Source of the DNA: Armatimonadota bacterium
GTDB lineage: Bacteria > Armatimonadota > HRBIN16
DNA length: 64,000 nucleotides
Assembly (NCBI GenBank): GCA_963677485.1
Contig: OY781964.1
Span: 672,001-736,000, forward strand
Direction of reading: 5' to 3'
Shown here: one piece after another, positions 34,586 through 42,359 of the stretch
How the letters are laid out: each line of letters starts with the position of its first letter
Position numbering within the stretch: position 1 is the stretch's first letter
The notes under the pieces: generated by a model
The model's input: only the letters and a program-made list of their open reading frames with translations
Databases searched by the model: none
Told to the model about the DNA's origin: nothing
Translations under genes and position numbers: made by a program

Positions 34586-36580
34586 CTATCGCAGCTGACG
34601 CACCAGCTCAGGTAAATTCTGCCCTTCCACCACGCGGTCGCCCGAGCCTAGCTGCAACTTCACGACCTTCAGATTTTTGTCCTTGCCCGTATAAAGCGTG
34701 CGCATCCAAAGCAATCGGCCTTCCACCACCATCGGCCGGATTTCACCTTTTCGTAGCGTGCCGGAGCTCCGATTAGCCATCTGCGTGAACAGCTTCACGC
34801 TCATCTGCGGTGTCTTGAACACACTGCGCCACAGATGATACCCATCCGAAGCGAGATAGCCGGCGATTTGCGGGTTCTTTGCCGATACCTCGTAGGGCAA
34901 TACCTGCATCCAGTGACCGTCGCACAAAGTCCACCAAGGTTCCATCTGCTTCAAAGAAGGAAGTGGCACAGTGCGCACAGGCACCGTCACTGGCTGCTCG
35001 CTCTCAGGTCGGTCGACCACCGGCAGTTTCAGATCCAGGGCATATGCCTGGATGGCCATATAGTCAGAGCCAATTGACGGACCATCACCCTCCGTAAACA
35101 TCTTAGGAAAGACATTCCGGTAGGTTTGTAACAGCGGATTCGTTTTGTCTGTGATCATAAAGCTGATCTGACCACTGGTGGCATCAAGCCGGATATCCAC
35201 ACCAGGTTTTACACTTCGGAACCTATAGAACATGCCTGATGGCAGGTTGATAATGATCTGCTTGCTACCGGGCATATTTTCCGTGCCTGCGTACGCCAGC
35301 CGCTGCCAGTGAACTCTGTCGCCCTCGCGTACCAGTTGCACCGTGCGGTCATACATCAAGAATGGGGCCACGGCCCGCATACGGTCATATACGCTTCGTC
35401 GGAGCAATATGTGCGCATCCGACGGGATATCGCGTTTTAGAAGGCGCCGTTCCCCAACACGAAGACTCACCAGCCATCGCCGCAGTCCCGATTTCAGTTC
35501 GAAGCCTGCATTGGGATCGGTCAGTTTCGAGCTATATATCACGCCACGGTAATAGCCCGTTGCTCCCCGTAAGACCATCTGCTTTCGGTCGATGCTGTGG
35601 GCCAGCACAGGTTCCACACTGTTTTCCGAATACCAGACGGGCTGCACGTTGACATTCGTAACCCGTGGCTCTACCTGGTTGGCCTGAAACAGGCTAAGCT
35701 GGGTGCTATAGCCCAAAGGCATCACTGGCCCCTGCTTTGTCGGCAGGATGCTGGAAGGATCTGGGGCCGCAGGTTCGAGCAGACATAGCCACGTACCAGG
35801 CTCAGAGGGGCTCTGAGAGCCTCCCATGTAGCGGTTGCGCATTCTATCTGCATATGACGCATTCAGACGCTCCAAGACCATGTCACGGTCCCACAATAGC
35901 ATCTGATCGGACTGACATCCCGTTGCCTTCAGTTGGCCACCGACTGGCTGCACATCCAGTATATTGTTAAGCCCATAGGACAACGCGGTGTCTTTACTAT
36001 TGTCAGCGAGATTGGGCCAGCCATGCCCGTTCCCCACCGCCAACAACAATATGGCAGCCAGAGCGGTCAGCCCCATGCGCCACCTGCGTGGCACCGACAC
36101 CGCGCCAGATGGGTCTGCTGAGACCACCAGCGCCTGCACCATCCAGCAACCCGAAACCAGCCAGAACAGCCAGATCATCACCTGCTGGATAAATGGCAGC
36201 ATGAACACATCAAAGCTGGCGTCGACGCCAAAGGCTCCGATGTAGCCCAGGTTGGCCCGATGCGTGGCCAGCATCATGTTCTCCCAGAGGTTCGCAGCAC
36301 CGCCAGCAAAACATATGACGACTAATGCCACAAACACTTTAGGCATAAACTGCGGCCGTTTTCGGAAAAACATCCAGGGTAAAATCAGCGCAACGACCCC
36401 ACCCCAAAACGCTGCCACTAAGCGTGACTGAGTCACGGTGATATATGACGCCTCTTGGCCTAATTCCTTGAACCAACAATACTCCGTATACCCGCGCACC
36501 GAAAGAGAGACGAGAAACCCAAGGACGATCAGCGAGGTCGCCGACCAGCCCGCGACCCGAAGCCATTTCGCAACAGTCAT
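34586..36580 (-). CDS. UPF0182 (COG1615)-like membrane protein, divergent
   Basis: WFKELG, DASF.VF.LPF, LWDR, RSV.DR..AVAPFL.YD, DATSG. Confidence 0.7.
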   Translation of the reverse strand: MTVAKWLRVAGWSATSLIVLGFLVSLSVRGYTEYCWFKELGQEASYITVTQSRLVAAFWGGVVALILPWMFFRKRPQFMPKVFVALVVICFAGGAANLWENMMLATHRANLGYIGAFGVDASFDVFMLPFIQQVMIWLFWLVSGCWMVQALVVSADPSGAVSVPRRWRMGLTALAAILLLAVGNGHGWPNLADNSKDTALSYGLNNILDVQPVGGQLKATGCQSDQMLLWDRDMVLERLNASYADRMRNRYMGGSQSPSEPGTWLCLLEPAAPDPSSILPTKQGPVMPLGYSTQLSLFQANQVEPRVTNVNVQPVWYSENSVEPVLAHSIDRKQMVLRGATGYYRGVIYSSKLTDPNAGFELKSGLRRWLVSLRVGERRLLKRDIPSDAHILLRRSVYDRMRAVAPFLMYDRTVQLVREGDRVHWQRLAYAGTENMPGSKQIIINLPSGMFYRFRSVKPGVDIRLDATSGQISFMITDKTNPLLQTYRNVFPKMFTEGDGPSIGSDYMAIQAYALDLKLPVVDRPESEQPVTVPVRTVPLPSLKQMEPWWTLCDGHWMQVLPYEVSAKNPQIAGYLASDGYHLWRSVFKTPQMSVKLFTQMANRSSGTLRKGEIRPMVVEGRLLWMRTLYTGKDKNLKVVKLQLGSGDRVVEGQNLPELVRQLR

Positions 36581-36688: not shown

Positions 36689-37192
36689 ATGGACAGAGAA
36701 CACCATCAGCCCGATAGTTTCCCTCTGGTGTGGTGGGACGGAGCACTAGTCTCCTTCCGCACAGCAGAGAATGTGGATTCGTGGCCCGAAGCCGCTGAAG
36801 CCACGCTGCTTTTCGGTGTTTTCGAGAACCGGTTGCTGTTAGTTGATGTCAACCAGCGCGGCTGGAGTATTCCTGGCGGGCATATCGAGCTAGGCGAAAC
36901 GGTCGAACAGGCACTCATTCGCGAGGTCAAAGAAGAAGCAGGGGCTGCTGTGCAAAACCTGCAGCCGTTTGGCATCTATGAATTCCGTAAGGACGAACAG
37001 TCACCAGTTCATGCAGTGGTCACCACATATACCGGCCATGTCACTCATTTTGAGCCCATCTCGCTGGATATGGAATCACTGGGCATCATGCTGGTTCCCT
37101 TGGAGCAAGTCCAACGATTTTACTATACTTGGAACCCGCTGTTTGAAGCGGTGTTCAAGGCACTCATAAATCACGCAGCCTTATCGACGTAG
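36689..37192 (+). CDS. NUDIX hydrolase
   Basis: GGHIELGETVEQALIREVKEEAG Nudix box. Confidence 0.93.
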   Translation: MDREHHQPDSFPLVWWDGALVSFRTAENVDSWPEAAEATLLFGVFENRLLLVDVNQRGWSIPGGHIELGETVEQALIREVKEEAGAAVQNLQPFGIYEFRKDEQSPVHAVVTTYTGHVTHFEPISLDMESLGIMLVPLEQVQRFYYTWNPLFEAVFKALINHAALST

Positions 37193-37208: not shown

Positions 37209-38399
37209 ATGTACATTTCGCAGCGAGCTAAGAACACATTACCGTCACCCACCCTTGCTATCACCGCTCTGGCAAAAAGCATGAAGGAACAAGGGATAGA
37301 TGTGATCTCCTTTGGAGCTGGTGAGCCCGACTTTAATACCCCCGACGTGATAAACAAAGCGGCCATTGAGGCCATAGAATCTGGTTTTACGCGTTACACA
37401 CCTACCGCTGGCATCGAACCGCTGCGGCAGGCCATTGCAGACAAGCTGCTGCGGGACAACGGCCTGAGCTACAAGGCGACCGAGGTGATGGTCACTTGTG
37501 GTGCTAAACATGCGCTTTTCGGGATATTCCAGGCGATCTGCGATCCAGGCGATGAAGTGATCATCCCCGCACCATATTGGGTCAGCTATCCTGAGCAGGT
37601 CAAGCTGGCGGGTGGTGTACCCGTGTATGTGACCGCCGATTCGGCGGCGAACTTCATTCCCGATCCAGCTCAAATCGCTGCCGCGGTGACTCCCAAAACA
37701 CGAGCCATCGTCATCAACAGCCCGAACAACCCCTCTGGTGCCGTCTTCCCCGAAGCGGTCATCCGGGCAATCGCCGAAATCGCACTCAAACACGGTATTT
37801 ACTTGATTTCAGATGAAATTTACGAAAAGATGGTCTACGGCACGGAGCATTTCTCAGTGGCCAGCATCAGCGATGAGGTGAAGAAGCTCACCATCGTTGT
37901 GAATGGCATGTCCAAAGCGCACGCCATGACTGGCTGGCGCATTGGCTACGCTGCAGCAGAGCTTGAGCTGATCAAAGCGATGGTGCGGATGCAGGACCAA
38001 TCGACCTCTAACACCACTTCCATCGCTCAGAAGGCAGCAGTCGCCGCACTCAAAGCACCTGAAGGCCTTGTGACTGAGATGGTTGCCGCTTTCAATGAGC
38101 GGCGCGCGGTGATCGTGCAGCTACTGAACGACATCCCAGGGTTCAACTGCCCGAACCCGGGCGGCGCCTTCTATGCCTTCCCAGACGTGTCCGGTGTTTA
38201 TGGAAAGAGCTTCAATGGGAAGCAGATTAACAGCTCGGACGACTTCGCGGCATATCTTCTGAACGAAGCGCGGGTCGCCGTTGTTCCTGGCCGCGGGTTT
38301 GGACTTGATAGCAATATACGCCTAAGCTACGCCTGCTCGATGGACAGCATTAGGCAGGGGATCGCCCGCATTGCTGAAGCGGTATCAAAGCTCAGTTGA
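37209..38399 (+). CDS. Class I PLP aminotransferase (aspartate aminotransferase-like)
   Basis: GEPDF, NSPNNPSG, SDEIY, SKAHAMTGWRIG. Confidence 0.95.
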   Translation: MYISQRAKNTLPSPTLAITALAKSMKEQGIDVISFGAGEPDFNTPDVINKAAIEAIESGFTRYTPTAGIEPLRQAIADKLLRDNGLSYKATEVMVTCGAKHALFGIFQAICDPGDEVIIPAPYWVSYPEQVKLAGGVPVYVTADSAANFIPDPAQIAAAVTPKTRAIVINSPNNPSGAVFPEAVIRAIAEIALKHGIYLISDEIYEKMVYGTEHFSVASISDEVKKLTIVVNGMSKAHAMTGWRIGYAAAELELIKAMVRMQDQSTSNTTSIAQKAAVAALKAPEGLVTEMVAAFNERRAVIVQLLNDIPGFNCPNPGGAFYAFPDVSGVYGKSFNGKQINSSDDFAAYLLNEARVAVVPGRGFGLDSNIRLSYACSMDSIRQGIARIAEAVSKLS

Positions 38400-40393
38400 T
38401 AAGTGAACCACAGATACACATCGCATTAAACCTGCCTGAGGAGTGTGAAACACTTCTCAGGCAGGCCCTGACACATAAACACGACGACGTCACTGAGTTA
38501 GAATGCAACGAACGGCTGGAATTTCTGGGAGACGCGGTACTCGGCCTTATTGTGACCGAAGAGTTCTTCCGAAACCACCCCAAAGCGCGTGAGGGCCTGC
38601 TCAGCCGCGCCAGAGCGGCGGTGGTCAGCCGTCCCAGTTTGGCCGATTCGGCACGCAAGATAGGCTTGCACAACCTCATTTTGACCAGCAGTATGGAACG
38701 GAAACACGGCATCACACAGGGGCAGCGTGTGCTGGCCGATGCTATGGAAGCGGTGATTGCCGCGGTGTATATGTCGTTGGGATATGACACCACCAAGGCC
38801 TTCATACTACAGCACTTTGGTGATATTATGGACCACGCCCTGGAAAGCGCAGTGTCGCTTGACCACAAAACCGCATTGCAGGAATACGCGCATCTCAAAC
38901 TTTCAGTCACACCGACCTACGAACTGCTGACCGCGTTCGGCCCAGATCACAGCCGGAATTTCACTTTTCAGGCTTGTGTAGGTGATATCCCCTTAAGCAT
39001 CGGCACCGGAAACAGCAAAAAGTCCGCACAGCAAGACGCGGCTCAAAGCTCGCTGGTGATGCTTAAACGGATGGTGTCCGCACAGAAAACAGGTGTCGTC
39101 TCAGTTCAACCGGAAACTATACAGTTCAGGCCCGATTATGAGAACACCGCAGACTATATGAACATCGCCACGATGTTTAACCTTCCTCAACCTGTCACCA
39201 TCTCAGAGTTGGACTGCAAGGGCAATATCAACACGGAGAGTTTTCTCGTCGTTGCCGCAGATACGCGGTATATCATGCAAAAAGTGAACCCAGGGGTCTT
39301 CCCTCTGCCACACCGCGTGATGAGAAATCTTCTATCTGTCTGCCATCATCATGCACAGCAGCCTGGGAATATGCCCAAAAACTGGAAATGCCTGCAGCTT
39401 CAACCCACCAAACAAGGCGCTCCCTATCTCCAAATCATGCATGCAGACAGCAGTAGTGTCTGGCGTATGATGCATTTCATCGAGGGCACGTGCAGCTTCA
39501 AGCAGCTATCTGATGTGGGTGATGCTCAGCGAACGCTAAAGATCGCTACAGAGGCCGGTAAGGGTCTGGCGACATTTGTGCAGCTCACTCAAGGACTGCC
39601 TTTAGACCACTTTTATGCTAGTTTCCCGGGCTACCGAAACACACAGCTCTATATTGACCAACTAGAGGCCGTGTGGGATGGATGCCTAACGGTAGAAGAC
39701 GCCCAAAAGCATCTTCCTGAGGAACCATATCTACGCACTGCGGTATGGCCGCAGTATGTTCTGCACTGCGATACAGAGCAGTATAACTGCCGCAAAGCCG
39801 CCACAGAGGTGGTCGAGCTGCGCGACTACCTCCTTGAGAACCGTCATGTGGTGATGAAACTCTGGGACGAAGTGCAGTCAGGCAACCTCAAGACGAGTAT
39901 CATCCACGGGGATCCGAAACTTGAGAACTTCTTGTTTGACAAACAAACTGACCAAGTAGTTTCCATGATTGACCTGGACACACTCATGCCTTATACCTGG
40001 CTGGCCGACTGGGGCGATATGGCGAGATCGCTTGTCAACCCCATGGGCGAAAAGACGACGGATATAGATTCGGTCTATCTCGACGTCAGTGTCTTCAAAG
40101 CCTTGATGCAAGGGTATGTGGCATCAGCTCATACAATCCCCCCTTATGAACTAGAACTCATGACGCTCGCTCCGGCCGTCATTGCGATGGAGCTTGGGAT
40201 GCGCTTCCTTACCGACTATATCAGGGGAGACAACTACTTCGGACTGACAGAACAAGACATTGAACAAGGCGTGACCAACCTCAGCCGAGCCCGGGTACAA
40301 CTGCGCTTGGCTCAGTTGGTTCTTGAAGCACAAGATGAACTTCAAGATGCTCTTCACCAATTTCTAGATATGACAACGATCGCTGAGGAGTAA
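38396..40393 (+). CDS. rnc: Ribonuclease III fused to an APH/NahK-like phosphotransferase
   Basis: NERLEFLGDAVL, ADAMEA and dsRBD GNSKKSAQQDAA, followed by HGDPKLENFLF, IDLDT and RFLTDY. Confidence 0.88.
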   Translation: MISEPQIHIALNLPEECETLLRQALTHKHDDVTELECNERLEFLGDAVLGLIVTEEFFRNHPKAREGLLSRARAAVVSRPSLADSARKIGLHNLILTSSMERKHGITQGQRVLADAMEAVIAAVYMSLGYDTTKAFILQHFGDIMDHALESAVSLDHKTALQEYAHLKLSVTPTYELLTAFGPDHSRNFTFQACVGDIPLSIGTGNSKKSAQQDAAQSSLVMLKRMVSAQKTGVVSVQPETIQFRPDYENTADYMNIATMFNLPQPVTISELDCKGNINTESFLVVAADTRYIMQKVNPGVFPLPHRVMRNLLSVCHHHAQQPGNMPKNWKCLQLQPTKQGAPYLQIMHADSSSVWRMMHFIEGTCSFKQLSDVGDAQRTLKIATEAGKGLATFVQLTQGLPLDHFYASFPGYRNTQLYIDQLEAVWDGCLTVEDAQKHLPEEPYLRTAVWPQYVLHCDTEQYNCRKAATEVVELRDYLLENRHVVMKLWDEVQSGNLKTSIIHGDPKLENFLFDKQTDQVVSMIDLDTLMPYTWLADWGDMARSLVNPMGEKTTDIDSVYLDVSVFKALMQGYVASAHTIPPYELELMTLAPAVIAMELGMRFLTDYIRGDNYFGLTEQDIEQGVTNLSRARVQLRLAQLVLEAQDELQDALHQFLDMTTIAEE

Positions 40394-40397
40394 TCCT

Positions 40398-42359
40398 GTG
40401 ATGAAGCCCAACGAAGCATTACCCAAGCGGGGGCCGCTGCGAGCCATACTCATCGCAGTGCTACTACTACCGCCCAACGCATTGTGGCTTGTTCAGACCG
40501 AGATGCTTAACCGCGCCAGTAACACTCCTGGCAGCTCTGGTGGGCCATACCCCTCCACCTTTTCGCTATTTGCCAATGTCATATGTATCATTGCGGCTTT
40601 GTTGATCGTGAATGTGGTCATCAAACGCCTGAAACCCAGTGCTGTCCTGAACCCGTCTGAGCTTTTAATCATCTACTGCATGTTATCCATCGGTACCGCA
40701 ATGACCTCAGTGGATGGATTTCATATTCTAGTGCCGATGATCGGCCACCTGCAGCGGTATGCCAACAACGTGAACCAGTGGGCGAACACGGTAATCCCGT
40801 TGGTGCCCAAGTTCATGCTGGTGAGCGATCCGACCGCTTTGACCGGATGGTATACCGGATCTGGGAACCCTTTTGCCATCAGAAATATGCTGGCCTGGTG
40901 GAAACCAATGGTCTGGTGGGGCAGTTTTTCATTCATACTGCTGTGGGTGATGCTCTGTCTTAACGTGCTCATTCGCAAGCAATGGACTCAAAACGAGCGG
41001 CTAAGCTATCCTACCATCATGCTGCCCCTCGAAATGACCGAGAACACCAGTTTTTTCTTCCGAAACAAACTCATGTGGGCAGGATTCTTTATCGCAGCGG
41101 GTATTAGCTTTGTCAATGGCATCAGCTATTTTATGCCCAACGTGCCCACGGTGCCAGTCAAAGCATTGAACCTGGGGCTATATATCACCTCCGCTCCCTG
41201 GAATGCGATGGGTATCAACGGCTTCATGGCCAGTTTCTACCCCTTCGCCATCGGGCTTAGCTTCCTGCTGCCTGCGGATCTGTTGTTTTCGTGCTGGTTC
41301 TTCTATTTGATTAATAAGCTGGAGCTGGTCATCAGCTCGCAAATGGGATATCTGGGGATCAACCCCCAGTTCCCATACATCGCCCACCAAAGCCTGGGTG
41401 GATACTTGGCCGTGGGTGTGCTTGCCATCATGGGTGCGAGAATGCACCTGAAGAGCGTGTTCATCGCCGCCTGGCGTGGCGAAAATGAGCCCGACAGCGG
41501 CTGGTTGGGCTACCGGATCGCCTCCATCGGAGCACTCGTCGGATTAGTAATGCTGTGCCTCTATTTCAACTATATGGGCTTGCCTTTCGTCTACTGCGTG
41601 GTCGCTTTCCTGCTCTATTTCCTCATAGGCATCGCCATCACCCGTATGCGCGCTGAGCTTGGTCCACCTGCCCATGACCTGCACTACGCCGGTCCCGACA
41701 CACTCTTTATCTCAACCCTCGGCGCGGGGCACTTCACTACAAAACAGTTGACTGCGCTCAGTTGGTTTTACTGGTTCAACCGCGCTTACCGCAGCCTGGC
41801 CATGCCGCACCAACTTGAGGCTATGAAAATAGCCGAAAGACGCAAAATGAAGCAAAGCCCAATGCTCACGGCGTTGGTCGTTGCCGCCTTAGTGGGTGTC
41901 GCCTCAGGTCTGTTTGCCGAATACTGGTATGGATACACCAAGTCAGCCGAAGTGGGCATGGCTGCCTACTATACAGGATTTGGGAAAGAGGCGTTTGATT
42001 TCCGTCTGCAGAACTGGATCACCGCCTCACCAAAAGCAGAGGTCGGCTCTACAATCGCCGTCGTCGTCGGTTTCTTCATCACTCTGCTGCTGGGCTCCGT
42101 TCGTCTGGTGGCCCCCTGGTGGCCGCTGCACCCATTGGGCTTTGCCATCAGCGGAGGGTATTCAGTGGGGATGATCTGGCTTCCGATGATGATCGCCTGG
42201 ACATGCAAAGTGACCATCCTCAAATTCGGCGGTTTGAAACTATACAAACAAGCCGTCTACTTCTTCCTGGGTCTAGTGCTGGGCGACTACATCATGGGAA
42301 TGGCATGGCCGCTCTTTGGCTGGATCACCAAGATGGCGACCTACAGCTTCCAGCAGTAA
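40398..42359 (+). CDS. DUF6785/DUF6784-like polytopic membrane protein
   Basis: RKQW...ERLSYP, RMRAELGPP, WWPLHPLG, KFGGLKLY...FFLGLVLG. Confidence 0.75.
   Translation: MMKPNEALPKRGPLRAILIAVLLLPPNALWLVQTEMLNRASNTPGSSGGPYPSTFSLFANVICIIAALLIVNVVIKRLKPSAVLNPSELLIIYCMLSIGTAMTSVDGFHILVPMIGHLQRYANNVNQWANTVIPLVPKFMLVSDPTALTGWYTGSGNPFAIRNMLAWWKPMVWWGSFSFILLWVMLCLNVLIRKQWTQNERLSYPTIMLPLEMTENTSFFFRNKLMWAGFFIAAGISFVNGISYFMPNVPTVPVKALNLGLYITSAPWNAMGINGFMASFYPFAIGLSFLLPADLLFSCWFFYLINKLELVISSQMGYLGINPQFPYIAHQSLGGYLAVGVLAIMGARMHLKSVFIAAWRGENEPDSGWLGYRIASIGALVGLVMLCLYFNYMGLPFVYCVVAFLLYFLIGIAITRMRAELGPPAHDLHYAGPDTLFISTLGAGHFTTKQLTALSWFYWFNRAYRSLAMPHQLEAMKIAERRKMKQSPMLTALVVAALVGVASGLFAEYWYGYTKSAEVGMAAYYTGFGKEAFDFRLQNWITASPKAEVGSTIAVVVGFFITLLLGSVRLVAPWWPLHPLGFAISGGYSVGMIWLPMMIAWTCKVTILKFGGLKLYKQAVYFFLGLVLGDYIMGMAWPLFGWITKMATYSFQQ

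Follow-up and report, generated by a model that had tools for sequence, protein, structure and literature searches.

In the window, i.e. the whole stretch of 64,000 nucleotides analysed here, we confirmed that an RNase III with its dsRBD is joined in frame to a NahK-like phosphotransferase of the APH fold, the two being encoded by one unbroken open reading frame (Table 1). The source genome is denoted G000 below, and its genus, which carries the fusion, g1; g3 is the sister genus, and g2 is another genus of the same bacterial family. The start of the fusion gene overlaps the stop codon of an aminotransferase gene (TTGA). The aminotransferase is translationally coupled to the fusion gene and represents the ancestral 5' neighbour of rnc; it also lies 5' of the fusion in two further g1 genomes, G001 and G002, and 5' of the stand-alone rnc in g3. 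The DUF6785/DUF6784 gene on the other side has a ribosome-binding site of its own (GAGGAG), is the downstream neighbour in G001 and G002 as well, and probably belongs to the same operon as the fusion. As a candidate functional partner of the kinase it is uninformative, having 13-17 paralogues per genome in the bacterial family and not being adjacent to the kinase at any of 17 other loci.

Table 1. Positions of the fusion gene, its parts and the adjacent genes in the window
Feature	Position	Strand	Basis and remarks
Class I/II aminotransferase, upstream	37209..38399	+	Pfam Aminotran_1_2, E 7.8e-81
Whole fusion gene	38396..40393	+	ORF list; 665 aa, TTG start, stop at 40391-40393
RNase III catalytic (endonuclease) domain, residues 18-140	38447..38815	+	Pfam PF14622/PF00636, TIGR02191
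dsRBD, residues 158-220	38867..39055	+	Pfam dsrm, E 8e-13
Linker, residues ~233-255	39092..39160	+	pLDDT, identity, dN/dS
NahK-type APH-fold sugar 1-kinase domain, residues 256-665	39161..40390	+	Pfam APH, PDB sequence matches, Foldseek
DUF6785/DUF6784 membrane protein, downstream	40398..42359	+	Pfam; 4 nt past the fusion stop

The initial annotation described an RNase III signature and a dsRBD followed by a kinase with the HGDxKxxN and IDLD motifs, without an internal stop; Pfam, TIGR02191 and the motifs all agree with this description. For the N-terminal half, Pfam reports Ribonucleas_3_3 at residues 18-140 (E 1.8e-29), and the NCBIfam model TIGR02191 (RNaseIII) gives 197.2 bits, above its curated equivalog cut-off of 166.25; searching the genome with the model gave 200.2 bits. 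The segments NERLEFLGD (residues 38-46) and DAMEAV (residues 115-120) are invariant in all four fusion sequences, as are the acidic residues E39, E42, D46, E66, E101, D115 and E118, which we take to correspond to E. coli E38, E41, D45, E65, E100, D114 and E117. The dsRBD keeps the GPDH loop and the NSKK motif, and in the AF2 model it has the secondary structure alpha-beta-beta-beta-alpha over residues 157-232, with helix alpha-2 running on to approximately residue 232. Foldseek matches to this half include structures of bacterial RNase III (7r97, 1o0w, 2ez6).

This half is therefore organised as in the class 1 bacterial RNase III (Rnc of E. coli, Aquifex aeolicus and Thermotoga maritima), where an endonuclease domain with NERLEFLGD and the acidic residues precedes a single dsRBD; however, the protein is 665 aa long, not approximately 220-250 aa (231-243 aa in the stand-alone rnc relatives), and has a 410-aa kinase after the dsRBD. 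It also differs from most RNase III homologues in the loop 95-111 (GEE..GGR..S elsewhere), which is rewritten in the fusion and changed in the sister genus too, and from the usual dsRBD in strand beta-3, where P199 and S201 stand in place of V and G. As to a second rnc, which the initial annotation proposed to look for, there is only one TIGR02191 match in the closed 5.22-Mb genome, the fusion itself, hence the sole RNase III.

In the C-terminal half, Pfam finds APH at residues 276-548 (E 3.4e-11; score 43.8 bits, cut-off 23.2). Both HGDPKLEN (residues 504-511, nt 39905-39928) and IDLD (residues 525-528) are invariant in the four fusions, and so are K296, H504, D506, K508, N511, D526, D528, E552, R603 and Y614. 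A PDB sequence search matched this half to the NahK structures 4wh1, 4ocj and 4ocu (E about 1e-31), and Foldseek to NahK 4wh3 (E 2.3e-20, TM 0.94, rmsd 2.0 A). The counterparts of the NahK catalytic-loop and DxD residues (D208, K210, N213 and D228 in the 4wh1_A numbering) are retained as H504, D506, K508, N511, D526 and D528, while E552, R603 and Y614 are identical to the aligned NahK E254, R306 and Y317, presumably the sugar-binding residues. The domain shares with NahK of Bifidobacterium longum (4wh1-3, 4ocj) the APH fold, the H-x-D-x-K-L-x-N loop, D-L-D and the helix ME.GMRFL.DY..GD.YF, but is only 24-25% identical to it over the fold alignment, has about 40 more residues between the lobes, a trait common to the Armatimonadota subfamily of 405-455 aa, and is joined to RNase III.

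Elsewhere, kinases of this subfamily stand alone and are associated with sugar metabolism. Among the 120 best listed homologues (394-496 aa, mostly 405-455 aa), 116 have no fused domain according to precomputed Pfam (APH alone, n = 114; no domain, n = 2), and in the remaining four the kinase is fused to RNase III (n = 3) or to TIR (n = 1). One kinase homologue is fused to PGM/PMM, and carbohydrate genes lie beside the kinase in seven of 17 loci (PIG-L and PGM/PMM, twice each; GH95; LacI; a cytidylyltransferase with an epimerase). A conserved operon around the stand-alone kinase was rejected, the neighbours differing in nearly all of the 17 loci. For these largely uncharacterised NahK-like kinases of 405-455 aa in Armatimonadota, a role in sugar-1-phosphate salvage is suggested by their association with PGM/PMM, PIG-L and TIR. 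NahK itself is known in the context of the GNB/LNB pathway, with a GH112 phosphorylase, GalT, GalE and an ABC transporter (PMC8106489). The fusion locus has no such cluster, its neighbours being NUDIX, aminotransferase and DUF6785 genes, and GH112 (PF09508) gave no matches in the genome, in a search that is weak since it matched 0 of 14 controls.

If the kinase acted on a macromolecule, its substrate could be RNase III itself, in cis or in trans, or an RNA end. A precedent for the former would be the protein kinase of phage T7 acting on E. coli RNase III, which Mayer and Schweiger (1983, cited in PMC13645617) are said to have found to be stimulatory. The APH fold is akin to that of protein kinases, and the fusion would place a potential substrate at a very high local concentration. 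Nevertheless, we consider this variant highly improbable: the domain superposes on NahK with E552, R603 and Y614 kept, and its stand-alone relatives are found beside sugar-metabolism genes and, in one case, fused to PGM/PMM. The suggestion of the initial annotation that the kinase could modify cleavage products found no support, as the domain closely resembles an anomeric sugar kinase in structure and retains the presumed sugar-binding residues; RNase III cleavage products already bear a 5' phosphate, so no polynucleotide kinase is needed.

The two halves are connected by a stretch of approximately 22 aa, disordered in the AF2 model of the single-chain fusion (pTM 0.79), where pLDDT falls below 50 at residues 235-242. 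A short linker followed by a kinase of about 410 aa had been proposed in advance; the order and the size hold, but the boundary was displaced, as the homologous kinase begins near residue 256. The linker is the least conserved part of the fusion, with 35% amino acid identity between G000 and G002 and dN/dS of 0.11-0.55, and the frame is likewise open in G001 and G002.

Two separate proteins could still be made if the kinase were also, or mainly, translated alone from an internal start in the linker, the fusion then being only apparent. In G000, in-frame ATG or GTG codons are indeed present at residues 226, 255 and 260. However, no such codon is conserved in position across the four sequences, and no Shine-Dalgarno-like motif precedes the linker codons in the three genomes, whereas the downstream gene has its GAGGAG. 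In addition, the frame stays open through the fast-evolving linker despite saturated synonymous divergence. Hence we assign only a very slim chance to separate translation.

The full-length fusion was observed in all three g1 species genomes (41 genomes searched), that is, in G000, G001 (89% identity) and G002 (68%), and a fourth, metagenomic lineage with the fusion was found among 91 matches (P0002, 76% identity). The four fusion sequences are independent: two are from closed genomes, one is from a MAG and one from a further contig. Thus, the search for Ribonuclease_3+dsrm+APH in other genomes, advised by the initial annotation, yielded the whole genus (3/3) and the fourth lineage at 68-89% identity. 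When 1.84 billion representatives were searched exhaustively, the kinase (residues 235-663) occurred in only one other protein of the best 150 listed, P0003 from the same genus. Each g1 genome has one match to a kinase of this subfamily. We found no stand-alone rnc nearer than 49% identity to the fusion.

Two observations bear on whether the reading frame is real. Logan contigs from four runs in two studies, possibly the genome's own source data, span positions 38000-40800, including the junction at 39050-39160 singled out for checking, with no differing letters and no gaps. Of the runs listed for this stretch, none is recorded as RNA. In the comparison of G000 with G001 (dS 0.57-2.1), dN/dS is lowest in the RNase III domain and the dsRBD (0.020 and 0.021, respectively), followed by the kinase (0.038) and the linker (0.106).

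The rarity of the architecture is all that would speak for an artefact of sequencing or assembly, or for a recent read-through that inactivates the gene, as in a pseudogene. The chance of either is close to nil, as there are four independent sequences, identical contigs in four runs, and dN/dS of 0.02-0.04. The chance loss of a stop codon that the initial annotation held as its alternative, be it recent or artefactual, was ruled out by the three genomes, the fourth lineage and strong purifying selection on both halves; close relatives with two separate genes, together with a stop or indel in the linker, were to speak for it, and we found no split version in close relatives and identical contigs. 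Because the fusion is recurrent in the genus, evolves at dN/dS of 0.02 and 0.04 in its two halves, and has invariant catalytic residues, we conclude from these sequence comparisons that it is genuine and kept by selection.

We consider it probable that the protein is bifunctional, combining the sole housekeeping RNase III and an intact NahK-type anomeric sugar kinase via a disordered linker, and is selectively maintained as such. The N-terminal half would still dimerise and cleave dsRNA in rRNA and mRNA processing. The C-terminal half would transfer phosphate from ATP to the anomeric hydroxyl group of a sugar resembling an N-acetylhexosamine, and the resulting sugar 1-phosphate may feed a phosphohexomutase or a nucleotide-sugar salvage route.

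The rnc tree places g1 and g3 as sisters within their own family (support 90/89). In g3, the aminotransferase gene is followed by a stand-alone rnc; hence it was the kinase that was added, to an rnc native to the lineage and inherited vertically. The fusion presumably dates from the ancestor of a single genus in a family that is Armatimonadota-like by the names attached to the best matches; there, a kinase gene would have become located downstream of the ancestral aminotransferase-rnc pair, and the rnc stop codon would have been lost. Acceleration of rnc specific to the fusion was rejected, the stem of the unfused g3 being similarly long (0.78 vs 1.0) and the 95-111 loop being rewritten there too.

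The kinase part of the fusion forms a clade with a stem of 1.25 substitutions per site that does not group with the g3 kinase in the tree, and 27 kinase positions conserved in at least 75% of the stand-alone homologues are replaced in all four fusions. Given the long stem and the lack of grouping with g3, the function of the kinase may have shifted, or its donor may be unsampled. A common origin of the g1 and g3 kinases was considered; the AU test of a joint clade is borderline (p = 0.043) and the branches are long, so that vertical descent and transfer are indistinguishable.

Within this bacterial family, we found the kinase only in fused form, with RNase III in g1 (3/3) and with TIR in g3 (2/2), and did not find it in 13 g2 genomes. 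The TIR-kinase of g3 (P0107; L005:1090-2736) belongs to the same kinase subfamily (38-40% identity) and likewise has a nucleic-acid- or NAD-directed domain joined to the N-terminus of the kinase. It differs in that this domain is TIR_2, not RNase III, that its kinase nests among the stand-alone ones, a clade with the g1 kinase being weakly rejected, and that the gene occupies another locus, between those for an MBL-fold hydrolase and Ppx/GppA. PADLOC-DB yielded two marginal matches for P0107 (E 0.006-0.008) and no families for the fusion protein at E up to 0.01; the anti-phage defence reading of the fusion was dropped for lack of a PADLOC match.

RNase III is fused in other lineages as well, its partners among the 91 matches including PHP, URO-D, GrpB, SfsA, ROK, Fpg, guanylate cyclase and signal peptidase. 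The RNase III-PHP proteins of Desulfobacterales (about 520 aa), for example, similarly have an extra enzyme domain on a complete rnc and are lineage-restricted; however, in these 91 matches the partner is never APH outside g1. We found no described function for the other multidomain RNase III proteins in the literature searched. Since RNase III fuses sporadically with many unrelated domains, the fusion does not by itself imply coupling between the two activities.

The coupling of sugar or ATP status to dsRNA processing that the initial annotation proposed would require the two halves to communicate, and a contact between them is predicted. For the kinase and the RNase III part, complex prediction gave a score of 0.76 (runs 0.76, 0.74 and 0.77) against 0.18 for the best control, a mark attained in calibration by 58 of the 80 solved complexes and by 2 of the 110 mismatched pairs. 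These counts apply only roughly, as an alignment of our own was used. The docking runs agree in at least 100% of contacts, with partner pLDDT of at least 89. In the predicted contact, the N-lobe of the kinase, including the helix after the ATP-binding lysine (residues 304-313), lies on the back of the dsRBD. Thus, the N-lobe probably rests on the solvent-exposed face of the dsRBD beta-sheet, leaving the canonical RNA-binding surface free.

Two dsRBD positions within the predicted interface differ from most stand-alone rnc: position 199 is V in 88% of the latter but P in the fusions, and position 201 is G in 82% but S in the fusions. The interface residues are no more conserved than the rest (dsRBD, 0.59 vs 0.79; kinase, 0.67 vs 0.58), and clade-specific residues show no significant enrichment there (Fisher p 0.57 and 0.087; in a second analysis, 0.29 and 1.0). 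Independent backing of the interface by conservation or clade-specific substitutions was therefore rejected as not significant.

If the fusion were regulatory, the kinase would sense its ligand or ATP, and its open-to-closed motion would tune the activity or substrate choice of RNase III via the contact with the dsRBD; alternatively, RNA binding would tune the kinase. Either way, amino-sugar or energy status would be tied to RNA processing. Such regulation would fit the predicted contact with its score far above the control, the changes at 199 and 201 within it, the occurrence of the kinase only in fused form in g1 and g3, and the long stem of the kinase clade. We nevertheless regard it as rather unlikely, as neither conserved nor clade-specific residues are significantly enriched at the interface, the disordered linker evolves rapidly, and the rapid evolution of rnc is also seen in the unfused sister genus. 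Furthermore, the catalytic residues of the kinase are all kept, as in an ordinary enzyme, and the many unrelated partners of RNase III suggest that its C-terminus simply tolerates passengers.

A more specific scheme, which we find doubtful, would treat the kinase as a metabolite- and ATP-sensing module recruited twice onto degradative N-terminal domains (RNase III and TIR). Closure of its lobes on an amino sugar, e.g. a cell-wall turnover product, would then gate dsRNA processing via the back of the dsRBD. The protein would then connect envelope or carbon status directly, within one polypeptide, to the global maturation and decay of RNA.

The bifunctional protein, the reading preferred here, constitutes a new domain architecture; no description of an RNase III-APH/NahK fusion was found in the literature listings and abstracts searched, whose coverage leaves out subscription journals. 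The usual picture of bacterial RNase III is that of a minimal enzyme (about 230 aa) which is constitutive and whose regulation is exerted in trans (by YmdB or the T7 kinase). In g1, by comparison, a whole genus has its only RNase III copy joined to an apparently active sugar kinase, a state that extends down to 68% identity with synonymous sites saturated. Thus, the C-terminus of the dsRBD can bear a 47-kDa enzyme without losing a function that looks indispensable. If the predicted contact between the dsRBD and the kinase is both real and regulatory, a new mode of RNase III control would be at hand; if it is not, the protein would be a well-documented instance of a fusion that is neutral or serves co-expression, and a warning against inferring function from Rosetta-stone fusions. 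The fusion is also a natural system in which to ask whether a metabolic enzyme can be coupled directly to RNA processing.

The start codon of the fusion gene, TTG, and the TGA stop codon of the aminotransferase gene upstream overlap as TTGA. The architecture described in the initial annotation, RNase III followed by a dsRBD and an APH-like kinase, was borne out, as a single frame encodes all three Pfam domains and the product scores 197.2 bits with the NCBIfam RNase III equivalog TIGR02191 (cut-off 166.25). The NUDIX hydrolase gene, given its strand and its closeness to the aminotransferase gene, may share an operon with the fusion gene. The family of the downstream DUF6785/DUF6784 protein is strongly expanded in three genomes of the same bacterial family (16, 13 and 17 matches), with no matches in two genomes from a different family of the phylum or in 14 well-known control genomes. 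The UPF0182-like protein matches a 770-position profile partially, in three stretches.

The fusion gene, its domains and its neighbours (nucleotide positions in the window; residues in the fusion protein)
Feature	Position	Strand	Remarks
Fusion gene	38396..40393	+	one open frame, 665 aa, TTG start
Ribonucleas_3_3 domain	residues 18-140		Pfam, over gathering score
dsrm domain	residues 158-220		Pfam, over gathering score
APH domain	residues 276-548		Pfam, over gathering score
DUF6785/DUF6784 membrane protein	40398-42359	+	directly downstream of the fusion gene
NUDIX hydrolase	36689-37192	+	17 nt upstream of the aminotransferase gene, same strand
UPF0182-like protein	34586-36580	-	664 aa, divergent, further upstream

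That the fusion is an artefact is scarcely credible. The genome is closed, as one contig of 5.22 Mb, and Logan-assembled contigs from four runs (two studies) span 38000-40800, including the segment 39050-39160 proposed earlier for a check of reads, without a differing letter or a gap. Since these runs may be the source data of the genome itself, they exclude an assembly slip and give no independent support. Other contigs contributed many short pieces (32-39 bases, 2-3 mismatches) that matched only the region of the RNase III signature motif at 38506-38543, some of them at very high depth (3240, 5249); thus, the runs contain other, more abundant organisms too.

Among the 41 related genomes searched, a full-length match (query residues 1-665 or 2-659, no stops) was observed in all three genomes of the genus, once in each. 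The identity to the fusion considered here is 89% in G001, whose genome is also closed, 68% in G002, and 76% in P0002, a fusion from a fourth, metagenomic lineage and a separate assembly. In the comparison with G001 (Nei-Gojobori, dS 0.57-2.1), dN/dS was 0.020 for RNase III, 0.021 for the dsRBD, 0.106 for the linker, and 0.038 for the kinase, while in the comparison with G002 the synonymous sites were saturated. The catalytic residues of the nuclease half (E39, E42, D46, E66, E101, D115, E118) and of the kinase half (K296, H504, D506, K508, N511, D526, D528) are invariant in all four fusions, as are E552, R603 and Y614, aligned with the N-acetylhexosamine 1-kinase NahK of Bifidobacterium longum. 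Thus, the frame has stayed open and both enzymes have stayed intact over a long divergence, which excludes the chance or recent loss of a stop codon considered initially. Neither a Shine-Dalgarno-like motif nor a start codon conserved in position was found for the kinase, and its separate translation is highly improbable.

The TIGR02191 search of the genome found one place, the fusion gene itself, and hence no other rnc. In a search for stand-alone RNase III (proteins shorter than 365 aa; 2327 hits at E up to 1e-30, 8000 candidates scored), none of the best 120 hits exceeded 49% identity to the RNase III half; similarly, among the matches listed, no protein of 365-1164 aa other than the fusions exceeded 43% identity to the kinase half. 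Thus, all sequences more than about 50% identical to either half are fused among the matches listed, and the split genes in close relatives envisaged in the initial annotation were not encountered there.

Both domains come from well-known families; in the search of billions of proteins, their combination was not found outside one genus. Of 4115 hits of the kinase half (E up to 0.001) among 1.84 billion cluster representatives, the best 150 contained a single protein with the kinase at residues 235-663, the 671-aa fusion P0003 from the same genus. In 91 hits containing RNase III (365-1164 aa), APH was added to it only in three clusters, all from this genus. The same hits included RNase III fused to various further domains in other lineages (P0006-P0088), such as PHP (PF02811) in dozens of clusters from Desulfobacterales, each of about 520 aa, URO-D, GrpB, SfsA, ROK, Fpg/Nei, a guanylate cyclase domain, and signal peptidase. 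As RNase III is often fused elsewhere, the present case is less surprising, and rnc evidently tolerates passengers. No description of an RNase III-APH protein was found in the literature, as judged from listings and abstracts.

In the tree built from RNase III halves and stand-alone rnc, the genus with the fusion has g3 as its sister genus (support 90/89), both falling inside their own family, in agreement with vertical descent. In g3, an aminotransferase gene is followed by a stand-alone rnc, the same 5' neighbour as that of the fusion, and hence the aminotransferase-rnc pair is older than the fusion, and the kinase joined at the 3' end; in g2, another genus of the family, rnc lies downstream of R3H/Jag, thymidylate kinase and c-di-AMP receptor genes. 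Homology to stand-alone rnc stops near residue 229-233, and homology to stand-alone kinases starts near residue 256, corresponding to their own residues 9-32. The gap of about 22 residues is a fast-evolving, disordered linker whose length fits a former intergenic spacer, probably read through after the loss of a stop codon. The fused kinases form a clade with a stem of 1.25 substitutions per site, not joined to the g3 kinase; constraining the two together lowered the log-likelihood by 15.4 units (AU p = 0.043), which is borderline, and long branches are involved. The matches listed from the databases searched included no closer donor of the kinase.

Long stems are also seen in the rnc half (1.0) and in the g3 rnc, which is unfused (0.78), and both genera have a rewritten loop at residues 95-111. 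Thus, RNase III has evolved unusually fast in both, and since the unfused gene shares these features, acceleration as a result of the fusion was ruled out. In the g3 rnc (L014:3980-4834 (-), L015), the conserved loop G-E-E..G-G-R has become A-D-P-T-G-A-S-S, and due to this change the glutamate equivalent to E. coli E100 is an aspartate.

The kinase subfamily is patchy: in a sample of 201 genomes from the phylum, it was detected in 34 (E up to 1e-20). In the family of the fusion, it was seen in both further genomes of the genus, in both g3 genomes and in none of 13 g2 genomes, and only in fused forms, with RNase III or, in g3, with TIR. The latter protein, P0107 (549 aa; L005:1090-2736 (+), G004; L006, G006), has an N-terminal TIR_2 domain at residues 10-128 (E 1.4e-10), is flanked by an MBL-fold hydrolase and a Ppx/GppA phosphatase, and gave only marginal PADLOC hits (E 0.006-0.008). 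Of the best 120 homologues listed, mostly from Fimbriimonadaceae/Armatimonadota where the source is named, 116 have no fused domain by precomputed Pfam (114 APH alone, two with no domain), three are RNase III fusions and one is the TIR fusion. The unfused homologues have 394-496 aa, mostly 405-455 aa.

At 17 loci from other genomes, the neighbours of the kinase vary, and neither rnc nor DUF6785 adjoins it. Carbohydrate genes do so at seven (PIG-L deacetylase, two; phosphoglucomutase/phosphomannomutase, two; GH95; LacI regulator; cytidylyltransferase with epimerase), the mutase being directly downstream of a stand-alone kinase in two genomes (L030:2758-4194, L032:2400-3788). In the homologue P0246 (440 aa), PGM_PMM domains I-II follow the C-terminal part of the kinase, which, together with the mutase neighbours, hints in Rosetta-stone fashion that the subfamily supplies a mutase with sugar 1-phosphate.

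Among solved structures, the kinase half (residues 236-665) matched only NahK (three distinct sequences, E about 1e-31). The AlphaFold2 model of the full-length protein (57-sequence alignment; mean pLDDT 91.9, pTM 0.79), with pLDDT below 50 only at residues 235-242 within the linker, superimposed on NahK 4wh3 in Foldseek with TM 0.94 (target-normalised) and rmsd 2.0 A, and also matched E. coli, Thermotoga and Aquifex RNase III (E about 1e-11 to 1e-12). The kinase half thus has a fold near-identical to that of NahK and the same active-site motifs, which together with the carbohydrate context and the PGM/PMM fusion indicate a putative anomeric sugar kinase, presumably feeding a phosphohexomutase or nucleotide-sugar salvage route. 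The GNB/LNB pathway context of bifidobacterial NahK, described in the review PMC8106489, is absent around the fusion gene; a search for GH112 gave no match in the genome, nor in the control genomes. A macromolecular substrate of the kinase is very unlikely. Phosphorylation is reportedly able to raise RNase III activity, a premise that goes back to Mayer & Schweiger 1983, a reference cited in PMC13645617.

If the halves were truly coupled in regulation, this would proceed through contact between the dsRBD and the kinase. When residues 1-232 and 250-665 were modelled as a complex, each with its own alignment, the score was 0.76 (runs 0.76, 0.74, 0.77; best control 0.18), a mark that 58 of 80 solved complexes attained, as did 2 of 110 mismatched pairs, this calibration being rough because of the author-supplied alignment. 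The contacts of the runs agreed in at least 100%, with partner pLDDT of at least 89. We know of no solved complex of this kind, so a pass from the predictor's memory is unlikely. The predicted interface comprises dsRBD residues 178-179, 181-182, 188, 190, 192, 197-205, 218, 221-222, 226 and 229-230, that is, the outward beta-sheet face and the C-terminal half of helix alpha-2, and kinase N-lobe residues 304-313, 337-348, 353, 405-407 and 444-448. A dsRBD binds RNA by helix alpha-1, the GPxH loop and the N-terminus of alpha-2 with the KK motif; the latter two we take to be residues 183-187 and 206-212. As these elements are largely outside the predicted interface, the kinase would ride like a backpack, with RNA binding still possible.

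In the four fusions, the interface is not more conserved than other positions (dsRBD, 0.59 vs 0.79; kinase, 0.67 vs 0.58), and it shows no enrichment of fusion-invariant residues that seldom occur in stand-alone homologues (Fisher p 0.57 and 0.087). Of the positions with a conservation of 75% or more in stand-alone families, those replaced in all fusions amount to 2/5 in the dsRBD interface (V199P, G201S) vs 15/74 elsewhere (p = 0.29), and to 0/5 vs 27/143 in the kinase. As none of these comparisons significantly corroborates the interface, the docking is a model-based lead and not a finding: the model supports, but does not demonstrate, binding. Regulatory coupling, the main rival reading, is a rather doubtful one, in spite of the strong divergence of the kinase clade, the restriction of the kinase to fused forms in the family, and the large open-close movement known for NahK.

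The reading that we consider most likely is a bifunctional enzyme in which each half has retained its ancestral chemistry. N-terminally, this would be the housekeeping dsRNA endonuclease of the cell and, C-terminally, an ATP-dependent sugar 1-kinase; the fusion would have been retained as harmless or for a benefit of co-expression, and the dsRBD-kinase contact possibly stabilises it. It is common for RNase III to be fused to unrelated enzymes, and no long-standing question is at stake; the interest of the case is that a real and old fusion involves an essential-looking enzyme, with one in-silico hint of a structured contact between its halves.
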